64,000 bases of DNA from Ilumatobacteraceae bacterium. Lineage in GTDB: Bacteria; Actinomycetota; Acidimicrobiia; Acidimicrobiales; Ilumatobacteraceae. Numbering within the stretch: position 1 is the stretch's first letter; every line of letters starts with the position of its first letter. A program made the translations under genes and the position numbers. Of this stretch, positions 3,362 to 50,912 are shown in pieces. The stretch lies in NCBI GenBank assembly GCA_049458915.1, contig JBMUCX010000001.1:389-64388 (forward strand), read 5' to 3'. Under the pieces are notes generated by a model. The model had not been told where the DNA came from, made no database searches, and worked only from the letters and a program-made list of their open reading frames with translations.

Positions 3362-5052
3362 GTCACTCGGCCGCCGACCACCGTTCCGAGCACCTCGATG
3401 TCCTTGATCGTCATCGGATCGACGGCGCGCGGGTCATCGGCGAGGGCGACGAGATCGGCGAGTTTCCCGGCCTCGACGGAACCGATCTGATGATCGAGAC
3501 GGAGTTGGTGCGCCGCATCGATCGTGACCGCTCGGAGTGCCCGGTCCACCCCGATCCGCTCGTACGGCCCGAGCACTGCGCCCGATGCCGTCACCCGGTT
3601 GACGGCACACCACATCGTGTGGAGCGACCCGAGCGGAGTGACCGACGCATCGGAGTGCACGCTGTAGCGGACCCCCTCTCGGTCAGCGGTCGCACATGCA
3701 TCCATCCGGGCGGCTCGATCAGGACCCACGGTCGTCGAGGCGTGCTGGTCGCCCCAGTAGAAGATGTGATTGGCGAAGATGTTGGCGCTCATGCCCAGAG
3801 CCGCCATCCTCCGGTACTGGGCCGAGGTGGTGAGCTGGCTGTGTTGCGCCGTGTGGCGGTGGTCGGGCCACGAGTGGTCGGCCAGGACGGACTCCACGGT
3901 GTCGAGCAGGAGATCGACCGCCTCGTCACCGTTGACGTGCGTGTGCACGGTGACGTGCGCTCGGTGGAACGCCCGGAACCACTCGTGCAACTGCTCCGGC
4001 GTGATCAGCCAGATCCCGTTGCCCCGCTCGGTCCCGTCCGCGGCGGGCAGGTACCCGGGTGGGTTGAGGCGAGCGGTGAAACCCTGGATCGACCCGTCGA
4101 GCACCAACTTCACCGCTCCGAACCTGACCCGATCGGTCGACCTCGTCGCGAGTTCACGCACCCAGACCGCCGCATCGTCTGCCGACCCGCGGAATCCCCG
4201 GGCAGGGTTGAACAGCGGAACGAGCCGCGCGGGAAAGTCCGGGTCGCCTGCCACCTCGGTCCACATCGCGGCCTGCTCGATCGTGTTGATCGCGGCACCT
4301 CCGAGCTCGGTCACCGTCGTGCACCCGACCACTCGGGCGATGTCCGCGAATCGCCGCAGTGCCGATGGCGCCGCCAACGCCCGGACCAGATCGCGCATCT
4401 CCCGGCGAGCGAGTGACATCGCAGCCGGCTCCTGCAGTTCGCCGATCGGTCGACCATCGGCGTCGCACGGCACACCCTCCATGTCGATCCCGCCGTCGAA
4501 TCCTTCCCGCCGCATGAGCGCGGTGTTCACGGTGAGCAGGTGCAACGAAGCGTGGAACACGCAGATCGGCCTGGTCTCCGACACCGCGTCGAGGTGCCGC
4601 GCGGCGAGGCGCTCACCCGGGAAGTAGATCGGATCGAATCCCCAGACCACGAGGGACTCGGCGGGATCGACGAGGAGGCCGTCGAGACGCCGGAGTTCAT
4701 CGAGGAGTTCGGACAGGCTCCGGCATCCGGACCGCCGGACACCGTCGGGTCCGACCCGAGGGAAGTACCCGACGTACTCCCACTCCCAGATCGCTCCCTC
4801 GAGGGAGTGGGCATGTGCCTCGACGAAACCCGGAAGCAGGACGGCATCGGCGAATCGGTCGTCGATCGACATCGCTCCCCAGTGCGACGCGAGGTCTTCG
4901 GCATCACCGACACCGAGGATGCGTCCAGCTCTGACGGCGACCGCTCCGGCCTCGGGAAGGCCGGGATCGAGCGTGACGACTCGACGCGCGACGTAGATCG
5001 TCCCGAGCTCGCTCATCTCCGCATCCTGGCTGCTCGAACCACCCCACCGCAA
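3358..5052 (-). CDS. Metal-dependent amidohydrolase (Amidohydro_3 / COG1574-like)
   Basis: The motif PGFVEAHAHS, the C-terminal GSVEAGKLADLV and a length of about 550 aa fit the family. The start is uncertain: TTG at 5052 or ATG at 5016. Confidence 0.75.
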   Translation of the reverse strand: MRWGGSSSQDAEMSELGTIYVARRVVTLDPGLPEAGAVAVRAGRILGVGDAEDLASHWGAMSIDDRFADAVLLPGFVEAHAHSLEGAIWEWEYVGYFPRVGPDGVRRSGCRSLSELLDELRRLDGLLVDPAESLVVWGFDPIYFPGERLAARHLDAVSETRPICVFHASLHLLTVNTALMRREGFDGGIDMEGVPCDADGRPIGELQEPAAMSLARREMRDLVRALAAPSALRRFADIARVVGCTTVTELGGAAINTIEQAAMWTEVAGDPDFPARLVPLFNPARGFRGSADDAAVWVRELATRSTDRVRFGAVKLVLDGSIQGFTARLNPPGYLPAADGTERGNGIWLITPEQLHEWFRAFHRAHVTVHTHVNGDEAVDLLLDTVESVLADHSWPDHRHTAQHSQLTTSAQYRRMAALGMSANIFANHIFYWGDQHASTTVGPDRAARMDACATADREGVRYSVHSDASVTPLGSLHTMWCAVNRVTASGAVLGPYERIGVDRALRAVTIDAAHQLRLDHQIGSVEAGKLADLVALADDPRAVDPMTIKDIEVLGTVVGGRVT

Positions 5053-5098
5053 TGGCGCACCCCGGCGGCGACCCGCCGGCCCCCGCTACGTTGGGGCG

Positions 5099-6325
5099 AT
5101 GCGCACCGCCATCGTGAACGGTCACGTCCTCGACACCGGCACGATGGAGTACTCGAGTGCGCGAGCGGTCGTGATCGAGAACGGCACGATCGTCGACGTC
5201 ACCGACGAGTACAGCGGTGGAGCCGACGTCGTCGTCGACGCAACCGGCGGATTCGTCCTCCCCGGGCTGATCGACGCACACGTCCACTTCCGCCTCGTCA
5301 CGCTGGACTTCGCTCGGATGTCGAAGATGACGGAAGTCGAGTTCGGGATACGAATGGCGACGCTGTCCCGCGCCACGGTCGAACGAGGATTCACGACGGT
5401 GCGCGACCTGGGCGGAGAACTGGCCGGACTCCTCCGAGCGATCCGCAACGGGGTGGCCACCGGTCCACGGATCGCCCGTGCCGGCCGCATGATCTCCCAG
5501 ACCGGCGGCCACGGCGATGCCGAGGGCGGACCTCGGGAGGTGCCGTCCTGCGCGTGTGCGATGCGTTCGACCGTGTTCGGCATCGTCGCCGATGGCCCCG
5601 ACGCCGTCCGCGCCGCAGCCCGACACAATCTGCGCGACGGCAGTGACTTCTTGAAGATCCACGTGTCCGGCGGGGTGGCGACCCCGTCCGACCCACTCGA
5701 GTCCCTCCAGTTCACCCCGGAAGAGATCGCGGTCGCCGTCACCGAAGCAAGCCACCGGGGCACCTACGTCGCTGCCCACGCCTACACCCCCGACGCGATC
5801 ACCCAGGCCGTCCTCAACGGTGTCCACTCGATCGAGCACGGCAACCTGATCGACGACGAAGCAGCAGCCCTCATGGCACGACATGGCTCGGTGCTGGTGC
5901 CGACGCTCGTCACCTACGCCGCGATGGGTGACCTCGGTGCTCGACTCGGCATGCCGGCGAGCAACCGGGCCAAGAACCAACGCGTGCTCGACGCCGGCCT
6001 CGATTCACTGGAGTCGGCGAGAGCTGCGGGCGTGACGATGGGATTCGGGACCGACCTGATCGGCGAGGCCCAGACGATGCAGGGGCACGAGTTCCGGATC
6101 CGCCACGAGGTCGAACCAGCGGTCGACGTCCTCCGTTCGATGTGGCTCGTCAACCCCCGGCTGTGTCGGGCCGAGGGTCGCATCGGTGTCATCGCGCCCG
6201 GCGCCGCCGGCGACATCGTGGTCTCACGGATCGATCCACTCGCCGACCTGAACGCGTTCGCCGACACCAGCGCCTCGCTCAGTCACGTCGTCCAGGCCGG
6301 GACGCTCGTCGTCGACCGCACCTGA
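5099..6325 (+). CDS. Amidohydrolase family protein (COG1228-like)
   Basis: PGLIDAHVHF, HAYTPDAI and GTDL motifs are present and the protein is 408 aa. It is divergent from the previous amidohydrolase. Confidence 0.8.
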   Translation: MRTAIVNGHVLDTGTMEYSSARAVVIENGTIVDVTDEYSGGADVVVDATGGFVLPGLIDAHVHFRLVTLDFARMSKMTEVEFGIRMATLSRATVERGFTTVRDLGGELAGLLRAIRNGVATGPRIARAGRMISQTGGHGDAEGGPREVPSCACAMRSTVFGIVADGPDAVRAAARHNLRDGSDFLKIHVSGGVATPSDPLESLQFTPEEIAVAVTEASHRGTYVAAHAYTPDAITQAVLNGVHSIEHGNLIDDEAAALMARHGSVLVPTLVTYAAMGDLGARLGMPASNRAKNQRVLDAGLDSLESARAAGVTMGFGTDLIGEAQTMQGHEFRIRHEVEPAVDVLRSMWLVNPRLCRAEGRIGVIAPGAAGDIVVSRIDPLADLNAFADTSASLSHVVQAGTLVVDRT

Positions 6326-6382
6326 CCGACACGGCCTCCGGAGGTCGGTGCGCGAGTGAACGACGTGTGCTGGACTGTGACG

Positions 6383-7081
6383 ATGACGACGTTCGTACTG
6401 GTGCACGGCGCCTGGGGCGGCGCCCAGACGTGGCGGCGGGTCCGGCCACTGCTGTGGTCGGCCGGACACGAGGTGTTCACGCCGAGCCTCACCGGCATCG
6501 GCGATCGAGCCCACCTCGCATCGCGGCAGGTGTCACTCCGGACGCATGTCGACGACCTCGTCGGCACCTTCCACTACGAAGGGATCGACGACGCCGTGTT
6601 GCTCGGCTTCTCCTACGGCGGGATGGTCGTCACCGGGGCGATCGACCGGATCGAGGACCGGGTCCGCGAACTCGTGTACCTCGACGCATTCGTACCCGCC
6701 GACGGTCAGTCGGTCGCCGACCTCACCGGACGCACCATTCCCGACGGGATCGACGACCCGTGGGCGATCGACGGGATCCCCCGCACCTACGAGGATCCGG
6801 CCGAGGCCGAGTTCCATCTCGGACGACGCACGCTCCAGCCCGTGCGGACCTTCACCGAACCGGTGTCGCTGTCTCGACCGCTCGAGGACCGACCCTTCGG
6901 ACGGACCTACGTGAAAGCCCTCGGTGACCAGCGTGCACCGAGTGGCCCGGACGCCTTCCACGACGCCGCGGATCGCATCCGTCACGACCCCGCATGGCGG
7001 TACGTGGAGTCGACCAGCAATCACATGATCCCGCAGAACCGGCCGCGAGAACTCGTCGACCTGCTGCTGTCGCTCGCCTGA
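6383..7081 (+). CDS. Alpha/beta hydrolase (esterase-like)
   Basis: The N-terminus is MTTFVLVHGAWGGAQTWRRV and the nucleophile elbow region is GFSYGGMV. Confidence 0.75.
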   Translation: MTTFVLVHGAWGGAQTWRRVRPLLWSAGHEVFTPSLTGIGDRAHLASRQVSLRTHVDDLVGTFHYEGIDDAVLLGFSYGGMVVTGAIDRIEDRVRELVYLDAFVPADGQSVADLTGRTIPDGIDDPWAIDGIPRTYEDPAEAEFHLGRRTLQPVRTFTEPVSLSRPLEDRPFGRTYVKALGDQRAPSGPDAFHDAADRIRHDPAWRYVESTSNHMIPQNRPRELVDLLLSLA

Positions 7082-7084
7082 CGA

Positions 7085-7140
7085 CCGGCCGGATCACGGC
7101 TCAGATCATCGTCCGCCGGATCAGGGCTCAGATCATCGTC
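7085..7140. repeat. Direct duplication of about 27 bp spanning the 3' end of the regulator gene
   Basis: ccggatcacggctcagatcatcgtc is followed by ccggatcagggctcagatcatcgtc. The second copy contains the stop codon and the last codons (STMI*) of the 7128-7889 CDS. Confidence 0.8.
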
Positions 7141-7889
7141 GAACAGAACGTGCCACCGCTCGCGAAGCTCGTCTCGGTCGTGACGTCGCCGACCTCACCG
7201 TCGATCAGCTCGCCCAACATGCCACGGACCATGCCGCGATCGACCGCGCAGATCACCGGGTGCTCGAGGGCGACATCACCGAACGGGCAGTGGTCGTTGA
7301 TGATGCGGAGACGGTCGTTCCGGCTCTCGGCGTGGGCAGCGAACCCGTGAGCGGTCAGGGCATCGGCGACCGCCTGGATCGCCGACCGCATCGACCGATG
7401 GCCGGCTTCGAGCGCATCACCGCGGAGCCCGGCGGCCATCGCCCGCCCGTACTCCGAACCGACCTCCTCGGCGAGTCGCTCGGCCTCGGCCGGGGTCAGC
7501 CGCGTGAGCGCCCGACCGAGGAGCGACAACACGAGGTCGTCGGACCGGACCGGGAACTCGGTCACGGCGTCGGCGACGGCTCGATAGCGCTTCGACGGCC
7601 GTCCCGCCCCACCTCCGGGGACCTTGCCCGCCTGTACTTCCAGGTAGCCGCCGGCAGCGAGTTTGTCGAGGTGGTGCCGCGCGACGTTCGGGTGGACACC
7701 CACTTCATCGGCGACCGCCGACGTGGTCATCCCGTCATCGCCACCGTGATCGCGCACGAAGAGATACACCCGCCGGCGGGTCGGGTCACCGAATGCATCG
7801 GTGATCGCGGACACCGTCGCGGTGAACGACGCTGCGACCGATGCCGTCGTCGCTGCTGATGTCGTCGTGCCGCTCGCGGCTCTCCCCAT
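7128..7889 (-). CDS. ArsR/COG2345-type winged-helix transcriptional regulator with a Cys-containing C-terminal domain (SufR-like)
   Basis: The HTH region reads FGDPTRRRVYLFVRDHGGDDGMTTSAVADEVGVHPNVARHHLDKLAAGGYLEV. The C-terminus reads HCPFGDVALEHPVICAVDRGM...FCSTMI. Confidence 0.7.
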   Translation of the reverse strand: MGRAASGTTTSAATTASVAASFTATVSAITDAFGDPTRRRVYLFVRDHGGDDGMTTSAVADEVGVHPNVARHHLDKLAAGGYLEVQAGKVPGGGAGRPSKRYRAVADAVTEFPVRSDDLVLSLLGRALTRLTPAEAERLAEEVGSEYGRAMAAGLRGDALEAGHRSMRSAIQAVADALTAHGFAAHAESRNDRLRIINDHCPFGDVALEHPVICAVDRGMVRGMLGELIDGEVGDVTTETSFASGGTFCSTMI

Positions 7890-42748: not shown

Positions 42749-43531
42749 ATGCGCAAGCCTCGCCTCACGACACTTCGTCTCGTCCACCGTTCCGACGACG
42801 CCGTCGCGACGATCCTGTTGAATCGGCCGGATCGGCTCAATGCCCTGTCGCGGGTCCTGCTCGCCGAGATCGTCGAAGCATGCCGCTGGCTCGACTCGAC
42901 CCACGAGATCAAGGCGGTGGTGGTTCGTGGCGAAGGTCGGGCGTTCTCGGCCGGGTTCGATCTGTCCGATTTCCGACAGTTGGAGGGCGCCTCGAATCCG
43001 CGCGACACGGCTGACCTCGGACGAATCGCCGCCGAGGCGTTGACCGAGGTCCGGCCCATGACGATCGCCGCCGTCCACGGGCACTGCGTCGGCGGCGGGC
43101 TCGTGCTCGCTGCGGCGTGCGATCTGCGGATCGCGTCGGACGATGTCCGATTCTCCATCCCCGAGGTCGACCTCGGGATCCCGCTCGCCTGGGGTGGCAT
43201 CCCTCGACTCGTCCGCGAGCTCGGACCGGCGGTCACCAAGGAGTTGGTGCTGACCTGTCGACCGTTCGGGGCCGACGAGGCGCTCGGCCTCCGGTTCCTG
43301 AACCGAGTCGTACCTCGGGACGAACTCGTCGGTGCCGCCGAGTCGCTGGCGGGCGAGTTGGCGAGCAAGCCGGCCTTCTCGCTGCGGGCGACCAAGATGC
43401 ACGTGAACGCGGTGATGAACGAGATCGCCGGGGTCGGGCGCAACGCGAACGACGCCGATTCCCTCGTCGCCGCTCTCCACGACCCCGAATCCCGGGCGGC
43501 GAGCCGCAACTACCTGCAGTCCCGCTCCTGA
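42749..43531 (+). CDS. Enoyl-CoA hydratase/isomerase family protein
   Basis: ILLNRPDRLNAL and FSAGFDL are present. The stop codon TGA (43529-43531) lies inside the left REP palindrome. Confidence 0.85.
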   Translation: MRKPRLTTLRLVHRSDDAVATILLNRPDRLNALSRVLLAEIVEACRWLDSTHEIKAVVVRGEGRAFSAGFDLSDFRQLEGASNPRDTADLGRIAAEALTEVRPMTIAAVHGHCVGGGLVLAAACDLRIASDDVRFSIPEVDLGIPLAWGGIPRLVRELGPAVTKELVLTCRPFGADEALGLRFLNRVVPRDELVGAAESLAGELASKPAFSLRATKMHVNAVMNEIAGVGRNANDADSLVAALHDPESRAASRNYLQSRS

Positions 43532-43561
43532 CCACGAGGTGTCAGACACCTCGTGGTCAGG
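43527..43561. repeat. REP-like palindrome (15-bp arms, 5-nt loop), left flank of the RAYT
   Basis: The sequence is cctgaccacgaggtg tcaga cacctcgtggtcagg. It contains the stop codons of both convergent flanking genes. Confidence 0.9.
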
Positions 43562-44351
43562 CGATGAGGCGATCGACGGCGTACCGCAGGCCCGGCTCGG
43601 CGACCACCCTTCCTCTGGCTCGCCGCAGCGCCCGCTGAACGGTGTCGCTCCGGCCGGAGGCGAGGTGCTCGAGTAACGCGGGCGCGGTCGTGCCCAGTTC
43701 GTCGGCCACGGCGAGCAATACGGTCCTCGCCAGTCGAGGCGCCGGGACGAGCTCGTCGGCGAACTCCTCGACCGCGAACTCCGCCAAGATCTCGAGGAGT
43801 ACCGGATCGAGTTCCCCGAGCGGCCGGACCATGGCAGCGACGAACGCCGCACGATCGTCGCCGTGGAGTCCGAGCACGACATCGGTTCGCAGCCACGACG
43901 GCGCTGCCCGATGCCCCAGGTACGTCCGGAGACTGGACCAGCGATACGACTCGACCGCCCGTCGGCCCGACAACACCGCCGGGTTGAGATGCACGTAGTG
44001 CGTCGCTGCGACGAGATAGGCGTCGGTGTCGATCTCCTTGGATCGGAAGCGGCCTCTCAGGATCGGGCCGTCGTTCCCGTGCCGGCGGTTGAACCTCCGG
44101 GTGACGACCGCCTGGAGCCACTGCATCATCGTCGACAGGTTGCCGTCGGGGCAGTGCACCACGAGGTGGAAGTGATTCGGCATCAGGCAGTAGGCGTGCA
44201 CCTCGATGTCGTGACGCTCGCACGCCTCACCGAGAGCTGCGCCGAACCCGACCCGATCGGCATCCGACGTGAAGATGTCGCGCCGTCCGGCTCCACGGTT
44301 CATCACGTGGAACCACCCGACCTGTCGATGCTGCCGCAGCGCTCGCCCCAT
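43557..44351 (-). mobile_element. REP-associated tyrosine transposase (RAYT, IS200/IS605 Y1 HUH family) with a C-terminal DnaA_C-like HTH tail
   Basis: The HUH motif is in YCLMPNHFHLVV and the catalytic Tyr region is THYVHLNP. The start is at ATG 44351 (MGRALRQ...FHVMNRG). The gene is flanked by inverted palindromic repeats. Confidence 0.85.
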
Positions 44352-44386
44352 CACCTGATCGTGATGACGGGGTGTGACGCAGTTGG

Positions 44387-45688
44387 TCAGGACCACGAGG
44401 TGTCTGACACCTCGTGGAGGTCGGTGGCGAGGAGGTCGTCGAAGGTCTCGCGGCGGATGACCAGTCGGGCGTCGCCGTCGCGTGCGAACACCACGGGCGG
44501 GCGGGTGATCGAGTTGTAGTTCGAGCCCATCGACCGCGAGTACGCCCCGGTCACTGGTGTCGCCACGAGGTCGCCGACGGCGACGTCGGACGGCAGTCGG
44601 GCCTCGAACAGCAGCACGTCACCACTCTCGCAGTGCTTCCCCACCAGACGACCCGACGCAGTGCGTTCGGCGAACGGTGCACGCGGCAGGAACGCCTCGT
44701 ACCCGGATCCGTAGAGCACCGGCCGAGGGTTGTCACTCATCCCGCCGTCGACCGCCCAATAGGTCCGCACCCCTGGAATCGGCTTGATCGTGCCCAGCGT
44801 GTACACGGTCACCGCTGCGCCGGCGACGATCGAACGGCCCGGCTCGACGCTCACGTCCGCAGTGACTCCGAGCGATGCACACGCATCGCGCACGACGTGG
44901 CCCCACTGCGTGATCGTCGGCGCCTCCTCCGTCTCGACGTAGGCCACACCCAACCCACCGCCGACCACCAACTCGGGGAGTCCGAGCGGCGCAGCGAATC
45001 CGGCCATGACCTCGATCGCCTTGGCGAAACTCGAGGCGGCGAACACGTTCGAACCGATGTGACAGTGCACGCCGACCAGTTCGACACCCGGCGACGTCTC
45101 GGCACGACGCACCGCCCGGAGAGCGTCGCCGTTCGCGAGGTTGAACCCGAACTTGGAGTCGTCCTGCCCGGTGGAGATGAACTCGTGGGTGTGCGCGTGG
45201 ACCCCGGGCGTCACGCGGATCAGCACGCTCGGCGCCGGACCGGTGCCAGCGGCGTGCAGTGCGTCGAGACGATCGAGTTCGTCGAATGAATCGACGACGA
45301 TCCGGCCGACACCCTCGGTGACCGCCCGTCGCAACTCGTCGACGCTCTTGTTGTTGCCGTGCAGGACCAACGACGCCGGTGGCACGCCGGCCGCCAGGGC
45401 GATGTGCAACTCGCCACCGGTCGCCACGTCGAGACGGAGCCCTTCGTCGTGGGCGAGTCGGGCCATCGCACGACACAGGAACGCCTTGGTCGCGTACACG
45501 ACATTGCCGGCACCGAACGCGGCCACGGCTTCCCGGCACCGGTTGCGGAGATGCTCCTCGTCGTAGACGAGCACCGGCGTACCGAACTCGGCAGCGAGAT
45601 CCTGCAGCGAGCAGCCGCCGATCGTGAGCCAACCGTCCTCGCCGACGACTGCCGAGTCGGGCAGCAGCCGAGGCGGGAGAGCCGTCAC
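44387..45688 (-). CDS. lysA: Diaminopimelate decarboxylase
   Basis: The PLP-binding region YATKAF and the motifs CESGD and GAYSRSM are present. The start is placed at GTG 45688, 17 nt after the upstream stop. The last 9 codons are encoded by the REP element. Confidence 0.9.
   Translation of the reverse strand: MTALPPRLLPDSAVVGEDGWLTIGGCSLQDLAAEFGTPVLVYDEEHLRNRCREAVAAFGAGNVVYATKAFLCRAMARLAHDEGLRLDVATGGELHIALAAGVPPASLVLHGNNKSVDELRRAVTEGVGRIVVDSFDELDRLDALHAAGTGPAPSVLIRVTPGVHAHTHEFISTGQDDSKFGFNLANGDALRAVRRAETSPGVELVGVHCHIGSNVFAASSFAKAIEVMAGFAAPLGLPELVVGGGLGVAYVETEEAPTITQWGHVVRDACASLGVTADVSVEPGRSIVAGAAVTVYTLGTIKPIPGVRTYWAVDGGMSDNPRPVLYGSGYEAFLPRAPFAERTASGRLVGKHCESGDVLLFEARLPSDVAVGDLVATPVTGAYSRSMGSNYNSITRPPVVFARDGDARLVIRRETFDDLLATDLHEVSDTSWS
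44391..44417. repeat. REP-like palindrome, right flank of the RAYT (inverted copy of the left one)
   Basis: The sequence is gaccacgaggtg tctga cacctcgtgg. Its reverse complement is identical to 43532-43558 over 27 nt. It lies inside the last codons of lysA. Confidence 0.9.
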
Positions 45689-45704: not shown

Positions 45705-46571
45705 TCACGGCTGACCGCCCTTGGTCTTGAATTCCCACCAGAATCCACCATCGGCGAGCGTCGTGCCCTGTTCGTTGATCGCACGGACCTGCCACTCGTA
45801 GTTGGTGGTCGCACCGAGTGGTCCGGCGAGCGTGACGCTCGTTCCGGACTCCGACGACCACACACCCCCGTCGCAGGAGTTGTTCAGCGTGTTGTCGAGG
45901 CACCACTCGTACCGGTCCGCGTCGGCGGAAGGATTCCAGCGCAGGGTCAGACCCGTCCGGTTCTGGCCGCCAGCGCCGGCGGTCGGAGTGACCTTCCCGA
46001 ATGTGCCCGGCAGACCTGGAACGGTGGTCGTGGTCGTCGTGGTCGTCGTCGTCGGGATCGTCGTCGTGGTCGTCGGCGACACCGTGGTTCCCGGTGCTTC
46101 GGCGAAGATGTCGAAGTCGACGCGCCAGTCGTCCACCCACGCCCCGTAGCTGTACGTCGGCACGTCGACGAGCACCTCGACACTACGGTTGCGCTCGCCG
46201 GTCGAGTCGACGATCAGGTGGTACGTGAGCACCGTCAGGTGCCCGCCACTCGACGCCACACGGGCACACTCGGCCGTGATCGTCGATCCGTTGTCGACGA
46301 GCGACGCCGGGTAGGCGACCGAGTTGTAGGTCGGGGATTCACCGCAGGTGGTGTACGGATCGACCGTCCGCTTCGCGAACTCCTCGACGACCCACGAGGC
46401 CACGTTCGAGGCATCGATGTTCGACAACGTCCGGTCGGAGGTGACCCCCGCGGTTCGCAACCCGGCCGTGGCGTAACTCGCGATCGCCATGACGATGGCC
46501 GCCATCACCACGGTCAGGATCAGGGTGAGGACCAGGGTGGACCCCTCGTCGCGCTGTCGCGGTGCCATCAT
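45705..46571 (-). CDS. PilX_N-like pseudopilin with a poly-Thr linker and a C-terminal FN3-like domain
   Basis: The N-terminus is MMAPRQRDEG|STLVLTLILTVVMAAIVMAIASYA. The linker is TTTTTIPTTTTTTTTTT. The C-terminus is LTLRWNPS...YEWCL...YEWQVRAINEQG. The ATG overlaps the upstream stop as ATGA. Confidence 0.65.
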   Translation of the reverse strand: MMAPRQRDEGSTLVLTLILTVVMAAIVMAIASYATAGLRTAGVTSDRTLSNIDASNVASWVVEEFAKRTVDPYTTCGESPTYNSVAYPASLVDNGSTITAECARVASSGGHLTVLTYHLIVDSTGERNRSVEVLVDVPTYSYGAWVDDWRVDFDIFAEAPGTTVSPTTTTTIPTTTTTTTTTTVPGLPGTFGKVTPTAGAGGQNRTGLTLRWNPSADADRYEWCLDNTLNNSCDGGVWSSESGTSVTLAGPLGATTNYEWQVRAINEQGTTLADGGFWWEFKTKGGQP

Positions 46572-48196
46572 CCCCAGAAGATCCCGTCCGTTGCGAAGAA
46601 GGCCCGCTCGTCACTGAGGTCGCGGCCGTACATGTAGAAATCGCGGGCGATGACTCCACCAGCGATGCTCGTGTAACTCGTCACCGTGGCGTACGGGGCG
46701 AACACCGTTCCAGCAAGGCTCACCGAACCCACCGCAGGCGCCCGGATGATGACCTCCGCCGCCGACGGGAAGTTCCAGATCACGTGCACCGTGCTCTGGC
46801 CGAGACCGAGGATCGTGGGCGGCACGAACTCCACCGTCGCGCCTGCCTCACTGGCCACATTGATGATGAGCGGAGCGTCCTGGCTCACCACATTGGCCGG
46901 CAGATCGATCTGTTCCCCGGCGAGATCGGCGAGGTTGCTCGGCTCCATGTTCAGCACGTTCGCCGAGTCATCGGTCAGGTCCAGATAAATGGGTTCGTCG
47001 CTCGCCGTGCCGTCGAAGTCGTTCGGAATGACCGAGTGGAACGAGCAGGTTCGGTCGCAGCTCCTCGGCAACTGGGCCAGCCGCTCGGAACACAAGGTCA
47101 ACTCGTAGAACGACAAGCCGGGCTCGAGCGGCAACGGCCCTTGGGTGTCCTCGACACTGGCCTGGCTGGTCGACTGCACGATGATCCGCGGTCGGTCGGG
47201 CGGGCCGGGGGCATCCGACTCGAAGATCGTGATCTCGCTCGTGGGATTTCCGAGTTCGTCGAGCGTCGGGACGACGTGGTGGTCGTTGCCGATCCGCACG
47301 TCGAAGCCGGGCTTCACCGTCACCGATCCGGACGAACCACCCCAGTTGATCGCAGTCGCCATGAGTCCGAGACCGGCGGGCACAGGTGCATCAGCGTCCT
47401 GAGGTTGGGCCTGCGCAACCTCGACCGCTCCGTCGAACGTCAGCGTTCCGCCGACGTACAGAGCGCTCTTGACGGACGTGCCCGAGAGGAAGACGTCGCC
47501 GATCACGAAACTGGCGATGTTCGCCGCGGCCGCCAGTGGCTGCCCGTCGCACAAACCCGTGGTGGCGTACGGGTTCTCGGGCCGAGGTGCCGCATGGAAG
47601 GTTTCGAGTCGTCCTCGCTGGACGTAGTCGATCCGAACCGTGTCGACTCGCCGATACGCATCCTCGGCGACCACGACCTCGGCCCGGTGCAGCGGCTCGG
47701 CACCCTCGACCGGCAGGTCGAGCGAGTCGGCGATGTTGACCCGCACGACTTCTTCCCACCCGGTGTCGGTCAGATTGCAGACGTATCGGTCGATGCGCGC
47801 CGACGACCTCGAGTCGGGCACCTCCAAGCGGTAGGCGATCCGTTCGTCGTCGGCCACGTCGATCCGCAGGAGGTTCTCGTTGCCGGATTCGGCGCAGCCC
47901 GATCCGCTGTCACCCCCGGCCCCACCGATGGTGGCCCGGTAATCGACCGGATCGAGCGATCCCGAGCCGACGTCGAGCGGGAAATAGTTGACGACCTGCC
48001 GTGTGTCCTGCGCCTCGGCAGTGGACACGACCACACCTTCCTCCGTCCGGAAGATGACGACCACGGCCGCCGCGATCACTCCCGTGACGAGTGTGAACAT
48101 CACGATCGTCACGATGATCTCGACGAGCGTGATACCAGCGTCACGTCGCTGCTCGTCGGGAGCTCCACTCGTGGTCATCGTGGTCATCGTGCTCAC
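46568..48196 (-). CDS. Large prepilin-type N-terminal domain protein (PilW-position) with a choice-of-anchor-A-like passenger domain
   Basis: The N-terminus is ...DEQRRDAG|ITLVEIIVTIVMFTLVTGVIAAAVVVI. The C-terminal region VHVIWNFPSAAEVIIRAP...GTVFAPYATVT...GGVIARDF resembles choice-of-anchor A by recall. The start is GTG 48196 (GTGA overlap) or ATG 48187. Confidence 0.65.
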   Translation of the reverse strand: MSTMTTMTTSGAPDEQRRDAGITLVEIIVTIVMFTLVTGVIAAAVVVIFRTEEGVVVSTAEAQDTRQVVNYFPLDVGSGSLDPVDYRATIGGAGGDSGSGCAESGNENLLRIDVADDERIAYRLEVPDSRSSARIDRYVCNLTDTGWEEVVRVNIADSLDLPVEGAEPLHRAEVVVAEDAYRRVDTVRIDYVQRGRLETFHAAPRPENPYATTGLCDGQPLAAAANIASFVIGDVFLSGTSVKSALYVGGTLTFDGAVEVAQAQPQDADAPVPAGLGLMATAINWGGSSGSVTVKPGFDVRIGNDHHVVPTLDELGNPTSEITIFESDAPGPPDRPRIIVQSTSQASVEDTQGPLPLEPGLSFYELTLCSERLAQLPRSCDRTCSFHSVIPNDFDGTASDEPIYLDLTDDSANVLNMEPSNLADLAGEQIDLPANVVSQDAPLIINVASEAGATVEFVPPTILGLGQSTVHVIWNFPSAAEVIIRAPAVGSVSLAGTVFAPYATVTSYTSIAGGVIARDFYMYGRDLSDERAFFATDGIFWG

Positions 48197-48807
48197 CCCT
48201 CGCCGTCCGGTCCGTTGATGCCGGGCGTGAGTTCGACATCGACCTCGCCCGGTTCGAATGCGCCCGGAGGAGCCGGCGGGATCGGCCCGCACGGGAGCAC
48301 CTCACACGGCGGTGGTGCGAGCGGACGCTTGACGACCTTCGCCGCGCGTGACGAATCACCCAGCGTCGCGCGCAGCTCCACTTCCTGAAGGCGATGCGCC
48401 GTGGTGCACCCGCTCACGAAGGCACTTCCGTTCCAGAAGCGAACGGCCACGACCTCGATCTTGCCTCGGCCGCCTTCGGCGAGTTCGGCCTGGATGACGT
48501 CTCGATAACTCGTCGCCACGTCCGTACCGGAATCGCAGGCGACGAACGGGACGAGTTCGGGGTACGTGTCACCGACGAGCACGCTCGCCTCCGAGAGCAG
48601 CGACTGGATGTCGGCGACCTCGTCGCTCGTACGTGCTCCCACGGTTGCCGCCGACATCGAGGCGAGCACCGCCACGCCTGCCGTCCCGAGCAACACGATC
48701 GCGACCAGCAACTCGAGGAACGACGCGCCGAGGTCGCGCGGCCGCACGGACCCGGAGTCGACGCTCCCGGGGTTCGGACTGGTGGTGGTCGGGACGGTGG
48801 AGGTCAT
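48193..48807 (-). CDS. Prepilin-type N-terminal cleavage/methylation domain protein (minor pilin/pseudopilin-like)
   Basis: The sequence is ...VRPRDLG|ASFLELLVAIVLLGTAGVAVLA, with Glu at +5. Paired Cys residues lie in the globular part and the tail is Pro-rich. A shorter leader is possible from the internal GTG (VDSGSV...). Confidence 0.7.
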   Translation of the reverse strand: MTSTVPTTTSPNPGSVDSGSVRPRDLGASFLELLVAIVLLGTAGVAVLASMSAATVGARTSDEVADIQSLLSEASVLVGDTYPELVPFVACDSGTDVATSYRDVIQAELAEGGRGKIEVVAVRFWNGSAFVSGCTTAHRLQEVELRATLGDSSRAAKVVKRPLAPPPCEVLPCGPIPPAPPGAFEPGEVDVELTPGINGPDGEG

Positions 48808-48968
48808 ACCGGTACGGTCATGCGGGAGATGGTCAGCCAGTGGCAGCGCGGGCCAGGAGGTTCCGCACTTGACGGATACTAGCCACCGGTGACCGACGAA
48901 TCAGTCAAGATCTCGTTCCGGCCACCACCGAGCCGGTCGGAGCAGCCACCCACGGTCGGAGAACGCGG

Positions 48969-50705
48969 TCACATGACGGCCGGGGCATCGATGCCGAGCA
49001 GGCCGAGTGCGTGCTCGAGCGTTCGCGCCGTGACATCACACAGCGCCAGGCGGCTCGAACGAACCGGCTCGTCGGCCTTCATCACCGGACAGTGCTCGTA
49101 GAAACCCGTGAAGTCCTGTGCCAGTTCGAACAGATACGTGCACAGGCGATGCGGGGCGTAGCCATCCGTCGTATCCGCCACGACCGTCGGATACGCGAGG
49201 AGCCGGATCGCCAGCGACCGCTCCTGCGCCGTGTCGAGCGCGATTCCGCTCCCTCGGACGCTCGCCCGGTCGACGCCGGCCCGACGGAAGATGGAGCAGA
49301 TGCGTGCGTGCGCGTACTGCAGGTAGGGCGCCGTGTTGCCGTCGAAGGCGAGCATCCGATCCCAATCGAACACGTAGTCCTTGATCCGATCGGTCGACAG
49401 ATCCGCGTACTTCACCGCACCGATGCCGATCATCCGAGCGATCTCGGCCCGCTCCGCCGTCGACAGGTCGGGGTTCTTCTCGGCGACCGCATTGGCTGCG
49501 CGGTCGACGGCCTCGTCGAGCAACTCGATGAGCTTGACCGAGTCGCCCGATCGGCTCCGCAACATCTTGCGGTCCTCGCCGAGCACGCTCCCGAACGCAA
49601 TGTGCACGGCCTCCGCCGGGGACCGCAACCAGCCGGCCATACGAGCCACTTCGAACACCATCTCGAGATGCTGGGACTGCGGAGCGCCGACGACGTAGAG
49701 CAGCAGATCGGCGCCGAGTCGTTCGACGCGATCGATGACACACGTGAGGTCGCTGGTGGCGTAGTTGAAGCCTCCGGTGCGGGCCTGGACGATCAGCGGC
49801 AGCGGTTCGTTGTCACGGTTGGTGAACCCCGGCGGGAACACGACGGTCGCGCCATCGCTCTCCTCGAGCAAGCCGCCGGCCCGGAGACGCTCGATCGTCT
49901 CGGGCATCTTCGGCTGGTACACGGACTCTCCCGCCAGGTCGTCGTCGGTGAGTTGCACCCCGAGGCGGGAATAGATGGTGTTGAAGTATTCGGCGGACAT
50001 CCGGCACAGCCGCTGCCACAGGGCGATGGTGCCGGGGTCGTACGCCTGGAGCAGGACGACCCGCTCACGCGCCCGGGCCTGGAACTCCTCGGAGTCGGCG
50101 AACTTCGCATTGGCCGCCTTGTAAAAGGCGTCGAGATCGCCCTGCTGCATCCCTTCGGCGGCGACGTCCTCGCCGATGTCCAGGAGGTGCTCGATCAGCA
50201 TGCCGAACGGACGACCCCAGTCACCGATGTGGTTCTCGCGGATCACGGTGTGGCCCTGGAACTGCAGCAGGCGGACGATCGCATCACCGATCACCGTCGA
50301 TCGGAGGTGACCGACGTGCATCTCCTTGGCGACATTGGGTGCCGAGTAGTCGACGACGGCGGTCCGCATCGTCGACGCCACCGGCACGCCGAGTCGCTCG
50401 TCGACCGCGACCTCGGCGAGTCGGCTCGCCAGGAACGAATCGTCGAAGGTCAGGTTCACGAAGCCGGGTCCGGCGATCTCGACGGCGCTGCAGACACCCT
50501 CGAGCACTCCGGAGTCGACGACCCGCTGTGCGATCTCGCGCGGGTTGGACCCGAGTTGCTTCGCGAGCGGAAGCGCACCGTTGATCTGGGCGTCGGCACG
50601 GTCGCTGGGCCGGACCACGGCATCGGCCGGTGATCCGGCGATGTCGGCGAACACCGGGGCGAGCAGGTCGGAGACGATGGTGATCGGGTCGGCCACGGCC
50701 GCCAT
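48969..50705 (-). CDS. argS: Arginine--tRNA ligase
   Basis: The HIGH-type motif (NVAKEMHVGHLRS) and the anticodon-binding C-terminal domain ending in ...APAVM are present. The start is at ATG 50705; the track ORF extension upstream runs through the tRNA gene. Confidence 0.93.
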   Translation of the reverse strand: MAAVADPITIVSDLLAPVFADIAGSPADAVVRPSDRADAQINGALPLAKQLGSNPREIAQRVVDSGVLEGVCSAVEIAGPGFVNLTFDDSFLASRLAEVAVDERLGVPVASTMRTAVVDYSAPNVAKEMHVGHLRSTVIGDAIVRLLQFQGHTVIRENHIGDWGRPFGMLIEHLLDIGEDVAAEGMQQGDLDAFYKAANAKFADSEEFQARARERVVLLQAYDPGTIALWQRLCRMSAEYFNTIYSRLGVQLTDDDLAGESVYQPKMPETIERLRAGGLLEESDGATVVFPPGFTNRDNEPLPLIVQARTGGFNYATSDLTCVIDRVERLGADLLLYVVGAPQSQHLEMVFEVARMAGWLRSPAEAVHIAFGSVLGEDRKMLRSRSGDSVKLIELLDEAVDRAANAVAEKNPDLSTAERAEIARMIGIGAVKYADLSTDRIKDYVFDWDRMLAFDGNTAPYLQYAHARICSIFRRAGVDRASVRGSGIALDTAQERSLAIRLLAYPTVVADTTDGYAPHRLCTYLFELAQDFTGFYEHCPVMKADEPVRSSRLALCDVTARTLEHALGLLGIDAPAVM

Positions 50706-50800
50706 TGTGCCCGCCCCCGTGACGAGTTGTGTCAGGCACGCTCCGTCGCGCTCGCGATCACGGTGCGCCGGGGGACCCGTCCCGGTAGATTCGCCGTGCC

Positions 50801-50872
50801 CGCCCTCGTAGCTCAGGGGATAGAGCATCGGCCTCCGGAGCCGTGTGCGCAGGTTCGAATCCTGCCGAGGGC
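50801..50872 (+). tRNA. tRNA-Arg (anticodon CCG)
   Basis: Manual cloverleaf: acceptor stem GCCCTCG/CGAGGGC, D stem GCTC/GAGC, anticodon loop CTCCGGA, T arm GCAGG-TTCGAAT-CCTGC. CCA is not encoded. Confidence 0.88.
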
Positions 50873-50912
50873 ACTCACTGGCGACCTCCCCGGAGAGCCA
50901 CTCCAGCCGCAA

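Follow-up and report, generated by a model that had tools for sequence, protein, structure and literature searches.

The locus described here raises the question of how a protein comes to display a choice-of-anchor A domain from behind a pilin-like N-terminus. The gene in question (gene 2; 46568-48196, minus strand) lies in a stretch of 64,000 nucleotides (nt), hereafter the window, which covers positions 389 to 64,388 of contig JBMUCX010000001.1 of an uncultured Ilumatobacteraceae bacterium of a freshwater/soil type (Actinomycetota, Acidimicrobiia). The assembly (GCA_049458915.1) is a metagenome-assembled genome (MAG) of 3.08 Mb in 241 contigs and is 95% complete. An original prediction, made from the letters of the window, had described gene 2 as a prepilin-type N-terminus fused to a choice-of-anchor A-like domain and as a candidate tip adhesin. 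Our analysis suggests that three overlapping genes probably encode a complex for the tip of a type IV pilus, in which the gene 2 product would be the adhesive middle member, a modular minor pilin.

A choice-of-anchor A domain behind a pilin module

Gene 2 encodes 542 amino acids (aa) from a GTG start codon, or 539 aa from an ATG codon 9 nt downstream. Both peptide strings that had been quoted for the choice-of-anchor A identification are verbatim in the translation, and searches with profile hidden Markov models (HMMs) place the identification far above the cut-offs. NCBIfam TIGR04215 (choice_anch_A) matches residues 226-522 over profile positions 2-243 of 255 (E=4e-18; 66.1 bits, with a curated cut-off of 29 bits), and Pfam PF20597 (pAdhesive_15) matches residues 220-521 over profile positions 1-247 of 254 (E=1.2e-25; 91.3 bits, with a cut-off of 23.8 bits). 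The module is thus placed at residues 220-521 (46634-47539, minus strand). It is matched by these models in 37/38 representatives of the gene 2 family, and gene 2 is the sole PF20597 match across its own genome.

The N-terminus of the protein, ...EQRRDAG/ITLVEIIVTIVMFTLVTGVIAAAVVVIF, is a class III (prepilin) signal with Gly-1, a hydrophobic residue at +1, Glu+5 and a hydrophobic stretch after a basic leader, in line with the prepilin-type start that had been proposed. The leader peptide (residues 1-21) and the cleavage motif G21/I-T-L-V-E26 lie at 48119-48196 on the minus strand. G21, T23, L24 and E26 are invariant across 12 orthologues with 42-99% identity, and E26 is invariant in the 38 family representatives, at identities as low as 23%. 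The Pfam N_methyl model is matched at E<=0.01 by 25/38 of these representatives, with a best value of 6e-8. The C-terminus, ...ATDGIFWG, has no LPXTG, PEP-CTERM or hydrophobic tail in the translation. The usual company of a choice-of-anchor A domain, a Sec signal and a C-terminal sorting signal, is not found in gene 2, which has the prepilin signal instead. This lack of a C-terminal sorting signal is a feature of the context and not a property of the choice-of-anchor A domain itself.

Modelling of the protein gave the same division. AlphaFold with an alignment of 12 sequences predicted the N-terminal half poorly (predicted local distance difference test, pLDDT, of 60), and AlphaFold2 (AF2) with an alignment of 38 sequences reached a pLDDT of 85.8 and a predicted template modelling score (pTM) of 0.72. 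The AF2 model has an unbroken helix at residues 24-78 (alpha-1) and an antiparallel beta-sheet head at residues 86-202, mostly with pLDDT >90. They belong to the pilin module (residues 22-205; 47582-48133, minus strand; pLDDT 78-96), which contains Cys101 and Cys140; these two residues and Cys216 are invariant in 38/38 sequences. A linker of lower confidence (residues 203-228) leads to the beta-rich, solenoid-like module (residues 229-528), which has a flanking helix at residues 359-374. The modelled layout is a pilin module with a separate C-terminal module, not a plain PilW/GspK-type body, and it agrees with the fusion that had been predicted. When PDB sequences were searched with profiles, the matches were weak and confined to the pilin N-terminal helix (Geopilin, PilA, MshA and Streptococcus sanguinis PilE1; E 0.007-0.1).

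The first, poorer model matched an ice-binding protein in Foldseek (6eio; probability 1.0, E=2e-3, template modelling score on the target 0.52), and Pfam describes PF20597 as an 'ice-binding-like adhesive domain'. This fold class could mean that the beta-helix is a true ice-binding domain, or a DNA receptor for natural transformation like ComZ of Thermus thermophilus, an earlier example of a pilin with a solenoid that is cited in Raynaud et al. 2021 (PMC8179133). ComZ resembles the gene 2 product in carrying a large beta-solenoid-type domain on a minor pilin that is thought to be at the pilus tip. Its solenoid, however, forms an insertion within the pilin sheet and binds DNA, whereas the gene 2 module is acidic, follows the pilin module at the C-terminus and belongs to the ice-binding-like class by its HMM matches. 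Neither model matched ComZ in Foldseek. The strong acidity of the module (net charge ~-27; family median pI 4.4) is unfavourable for DNA binding and argues against a ComZ-like receptor, and a DNA-receptor function was rejected on this charge. An ice-binding function was rejected as Ice_binding matches are lacking: 1/38 members touches that family, at E=0.009. Moreover, many of the organisms with choice-of-anchor A proteins never come into contact with ice (10.1101/2023.03.06.531300). We regard both functions as highly improbable.

A trio of overlapping pilin-like genes

Gene 2 is the middle one of three genes on the minus strand. The stop codon of gene 1 (48193-48807) overlaps the start of gene 2 in the sequence GTGA (48193-48196), and the stop codon of gene 2 overlaps the start of gene 3 (45705-46571) in the sequence ATGA (46568-46571), which makes a 4-nt overlap at each junction. 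The order is a small pilin with Glu+5, the large choice-of-anchor A pilin with Glu+5 and a protein with Leu at +5.

Gene 1 encodes a small minor pilin of 204 aa, with the leader RDLG/ASFLELLVAIVLLG (cleavage site RDLG/ASFLE), in which Glu+5 is kept. N_methyl matches it weakly (E=0.043), and its orthologue in locus L008 at E=0.0021. The C-terminal ~40 residues form a proline-rich tail, ...VVKRP...APP..GGSGQA.VSLTPGINGP, that is conserved in an alignment of 5 orthologues and unusual for a pilin; it might serve as a strand or arm for contact with a partner subunit.

Gene 3 encodes a pilin-like protein of 288 aa, with the leader RDEG/STLVLTLILTVVMA (cleavage site RDEG/STLVL) and a conserved N-terminal body of ~150 aa. 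Its C-terminal domain is fn3-like, with matches below the cut-off (E=0.001-0.002). Between the body and this domain lies a poly-threonine hinge, TTTTTIPTTTTTTTTTTVP (45950-46110, minus strand), which is likely an O-glycosylated spacer. The orthologues of gene 3 have longer Thr/Ser/Pro linkers and differing end domains (Big_9-like, CBM2-like).

The trio is found in the same order, and with the Leu+5 third protein, in 10 loci: the window, L008, L009/L010, L011, L012, L013, L014, L018 and two of the three cassettes of G014, a complete genome of the same genus. The last subunit has Leu in place of Glu+5 in every locus examined. The large pilin gene runs across 2-3 frames in L012 and L014, two loci from GTDB MAGs; these breaks are probably assembly frameshifts rather than pseudogenes. 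The nearest named relatives of the gene 2 protein are from MAGs of Ilumatobacteraceae and Acidimicrobiaceae. A paralogous trio, whose large pilin is a different one, lies on contig C42 (~4500-7812) of the genome of the window. This cassette encodes a small pilin (G/LSLLE), a 478-aa large pilin (G/FTLLE) with an Ig/cadherin-like region, and a 477-aa third protein without Glu+5 (G/TVLPI), whose end, ...HGIIWAPHSKITLGNVT, resembles beta-helix cap motifs. PilX_N matches a paralogous third gene weakly (E=0.027).

The arrangement of the window trio resembles the pseudopilus tip complex GspI-GspJ-GspK, which belongs to type II secretion, and PilV-PilW-PilX from type IVa pili; in both, a small subunit, a larger one and one without Glu+5 follow each other in tightly coupled genes. 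The last subunit of those systems, which has no Glu+5, caps the filament. The trio differs from them in having no detectable sequence homology and no fourth, GspH/FimU-like gene in the cassette. Furthermore, its extra module is C-terminal on the middle subunit, whereas in the GspI-GspJ-GspK and PilV-PilW-PilX complexes it is inserted in the cap subunit.

Conservation of the pilin features bears on a second explanation, that gene 2 encodes a membrane-tethered surface protein. Its pilin-like N-terminus would then be only a signal-anchor, cleaved or not, and the choice-of-anchor A domain would stay at the cell surface and never enter a filament. The bulky 320-aa module, which cannot pack within a filament body, would fit such a protein, as would the position of the trio, which is not beside any pilus assembly gene, and the N_methyl score of gene 2, which is under the cut-off. 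On the other hand, Gly-1 and Glu+5 are invariant across the 38 representatives, and Glu+5 is needed only for filament assembly. A full pilin head of ~125 residues with its invariant cysteines is conserved as well, and gene 2 is co-translated with two pilin-like proteins, one of which lacks Glu+5 as in tip complexes. We consider a membrane tether unlikely.

A profile scan with HMMER over all of 1.84 billion representatives gave 2001 hits. About 35 full-length clusters at 50% identity match nearly the whole profile. The motif G-x-T-L-x-E, searched as a regular expression, is present in ~30 of these ~35 clusters, and most of the others start at or just past it. The survey that had been suggested for domain architectures of this kind thus uncovered an entire family with the same fusion of pilin and choice-of-anchor A domain. 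Other layouts that combine the two are ~710-aa proteins with an extra domain, ~480-aa proteins with a small-pilin-type N-terminus, giants of 1000-1580 aa with immunoglobulin (Ig)-like repeats and further domains (PA14-like by eye), and one protein with two choice-of-anchor A domains.

In a set of 301 Acidimicrobiia genomes, only three have the full pilin body of the gene 2 family (the genome of the window, G014 with three copies, and G114), and 65 of the 301 have the same pilin body with other C-terminal extensions. PF20597 itself is present in 10 of 401 genomes of the phylum. Outside the genus, the PF20597 proteins whose frame could be resolved start with a Sec-type signal, and one of them (L035) ends in an LPXTG-type motif. 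In G014, one choice-of-anchor A protein (L031) with a Sec signal and an LPXTG-type end stands beside the three pilin-anchored ones. This coexistence directly supports the pilin as an alternative anchor, which had been proposed as an N-terminal replacement for the C-terminal sorting signal.

In the window, the trio is flanked by argS (48969-50912, minus strand) and lysA (~44387-45688, minus strand), followed by hom and thrC, which is the usual actinobacterial order for these genes. In four of the 10 loci (the window, L008, L013 and G014), the trio adjoins argS or has argS on one side and lysA on the other. The predicted start of lysA is probably 16 nt past the gene 3 stop, and the trio may therefore be co-read with the housekeeping genes; it may also be read through from argS. 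A scan for sigma-70-type promoters in the surroundings of the trio gave no match, and a convincing terminator was not found there either. The 161-nt spacer between argS and the trio (48808-48968, minus strand) contains TTGACT ... TAGTAT with a gap of 21 nt, which is not a sigma-70 consensus; TAGTAT may be an actinobacterial -10 element. Just downstream of lysA, the peptide HEVSDTSW(S/R) is repeated in several frames at ~43530-44420, including the end of lysA (44387-44417), around a 279-aa open reading frame (43557-44396). As read from the sequence, the open reading frame may be a transposase-like gene with copies of a palindromic repeat on its flanks. The G+C content of the window is ~68%.

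Pilus machinery and the putative tip complex

The genome of the window encodes a type IV pilus machinery on contig C130, with PilB (C130:1248-2399), a Peptidase_A24 (C130:3845-4183), PilC, a PilT-like ATPase and a major pilin. The peptidase is of the PilD type and has a Cys-rich N-terminal domain. The leader of the major pilin is RDEG/FTLIELLIVIVILG (RDEG/FTLIE). The leader end R-D-x-G is common to the major pilin and all three proteins of the trio, which fits a shared peptidase. There is also a Tad-like set on contig C16; a Tad/Flp-type assignment of gene 2 was rejected, as the motif G/xTLxE with Glu+5 is of the PilD type.

For the gene 2 product, we infer the following course, from cleavage by this peptidase to a place at the tip, a role in adhesion and a likely ligand. 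The pre-protein would be inserted in the membrane through its hydrophobic N-terminal helix, and the PilD-type peptidase, encoded elsewhere in the genome, would cut after Gly21 and probably methylate Ile22. The pilin module, comprising the helix and the beta-sheet head, would then be taken up by the PilB/PilC machine. Together with the co-translated small Glu+5 pilin and the pilin without Glu+5, the gene 2 product would form a pilus-initiating complex. In its gene order, and in the lack of Glu+5 in one subunit, the arrangement matches GspI-GspJ-GspK or PilV-PilW-PilX. As such a complex starts the pilus, it would come to lie at the tip. A short linker would hold the C-terminal choice-of-anchor A module, a predicted beta-helix, out at the end of a retractile filament, as an adhesin. 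This role of a tip adhesin is suggested by the gene trio and by analogy.

The target would most likely be polysaccharide or particle surfaces. The hint comes from G014, whose argS-lysA-hom locus (L027; G014:C1:1131000-1150000) contains two sister cassettes. CBM_2, a cellulose/chitin-binding module, is present in their partner subunits (L027 8057-9175 and 10619-11881), namely in the third subunit of one cassette and in the small pilin of the other. Both modules lie behind poly-Thr linkers and score above the Pfam cut-off of 24 bits (E=1e-5, 26 bits; E=2e-18, 67 bits, in the same order). These modules point to insoluble polysaccharides as targets of tips of this kind.

The same gene order could also belong to a secretion device. 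The trio would then prime a short pseudopilus that acts across the cell wall as a piston, as in type II secretion, with the choice-of-anchor A module docking exported cargo instead of binding external surfaces. An order like that of GspI-GspJ-GspK with a third subunit without Glu+5 is that of secretion pseudopili, and for a Gram-positive bacterium there is a proposal of pilus-dependent secretion (PMC11580942). However, a PilT-like ATPase and a canonical major pilin, such as retractile pili have, are encoded in the genome, and the CBM2 modules on the sister-cassette partners fit binding of external polymers. Moreover, the cassette contains no candidate cargo gene. We give this explanation a slim chance and favour the pilus-tip complex.

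Several observations weigh against the assignment of gene 2 to a pilus tip. Pfam N_methyl (PF07963) scores 18.0 bits on gene 2, under its cut-off of 21.2 bits. Scans of genes 1 and 3 with Pfam and NCBIfam gave no match to the GspI, GspK or PilX families, only the weak N_methyl and fn3 matches. No pilus machinery genes lie within the window, and the trio is on a different contig from the pilus genes of C130. In G014, the machinery is at 4.539-4.545 Mb and the cassettes are at 4.615 Mb and 1.137-1.144 Mb; the cassettes are ~70 kb to 3.4 Mb away from the pilus genes and unlinked to them, and are thus satellites there too. The CBM2 hint comes from the sister cassettes, and none from the trio of the window itself. 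As for the structure, the better whole-chain model has no significant Foldseek match to a solved pilin or ice-binding protein in the PDB, and nothing significant in BFVD (viral structures), so that the label of an ice-binding-like fold rests mainly on the HMMs, together with the one 6eio match of the poorer model. Finally, we know of no studies of the type IV pili of Acidimicrobiia.

Relation to modular pilins and other choice-of-anchor A proteins

Raynaud et al. (PMC8179133) define modular pilins as pilin modules that bear an added functional domain, one without a specific link to pilus biology and probably exposed at the tip, and record 264 architectures. By the HMMs and the AF2 model, gene 2 falls within this definition, with its pilin module and its non-pilus domain. 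The same source describes PilB (vWA module) and PilC (lectin module) of S. sanguinis as tip-exposed modular pilins that act as adhesins, with adhesion proven for PilB.

Like gene 2, S. sanguinis PilB and PilC (PMC8179133; Shahin et al. 2023, PMC9934059) have a class III signal and a pilin module, a short linker and a non-pilus domain. The systems are also alike in their monoderm host and in having three minor pilins, two of them modular, that are proposed to be at the tip, with a proposed role in adhesion. The differences are that gene 2 carries choice-of-anchor A instead of vWA or lectin, and that sequence similarity is confined to the N-terminal helix. Furthermore, unlike the S. sanguinis system, the trio is a satellite cassette apart from the pilus locus.

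Surface and adhesive proteins are known to contain choice-of-anchor A domains, the adhesive trail proteins of diatoms among them, with no defined ligand (10.1101/2023.03.06.531300). Bacillus anthracis BA_0871, the founder of PF20597, and the diatom Trailins share with gene 2 the domain family, by HMM, and their nature as extracellular proteins of an adhesive type. Proteins of this group combine a Sec signal with LPXTG, PEP-CTERM or a type IX signal, and those of diatoms have no anchor at all, whereas gene 2 has a pilin module and no C-terminal signal.

The fusion had been put forward as one that was not described, and this stands in part. We found no paper on the pairing of choice-of-anchor A and pilins; the one text that mentions both (PMC11580942) does so for neighbours of TasA-like genes. 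In the portion of the supplements of Raynaud et al. that was covered, IPR026588 is absent. On the other hand, automatic names of the Joint Genome Institute (JGI) already pair 'choice-of-anchor A domain-containing protein' with 'prepilin-type N-terminal cleavage/methylation domain', and the fusion falls in the published class of modular pilins, so that its novelty is smaller than had been supposed. The combination of choice-of-anchor A and pilin is automatically annotated, recurrent in several dozen protein clusters and within a published class, and it is a modest addition to the modular pilins.

A broader idea, which we put forward tentatively as somewhat doubtful, is that Acidimicrobiia may keep interchangeable three-gene tip cassettes, through which one type IV pilus machine is redirected to different surfaces in the environment. 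These would be satellite trios with swappable modules (choice-of-anchor A, CBM2, fn3/Ig-like and others), often in the argS-lysA-hom locus, and the pilin N-terminus would be a fourth, so far unlisted anchor option for choice-of-anchor A.

For pilus biology, our results add one further architecture to the large catalogue of modular pilins, and the conceptual gain is small. They also extend the 'choice of anchor' idea, as the same adhesive domain may be displayed by sortase, PEP-CTERM, type IX secretion or a pilin. Lakes, seas and soils commonly contain Acidimicrobiia of the Ilumatobacteraceae type, which are hardly cultivated. The putative pilus-tip complex with a choice-of-anchor A module, together with its CBM2-bearing sister cassettes, would be a concrete candidate for the attachment of these bacteria to particles and polysaccharides.

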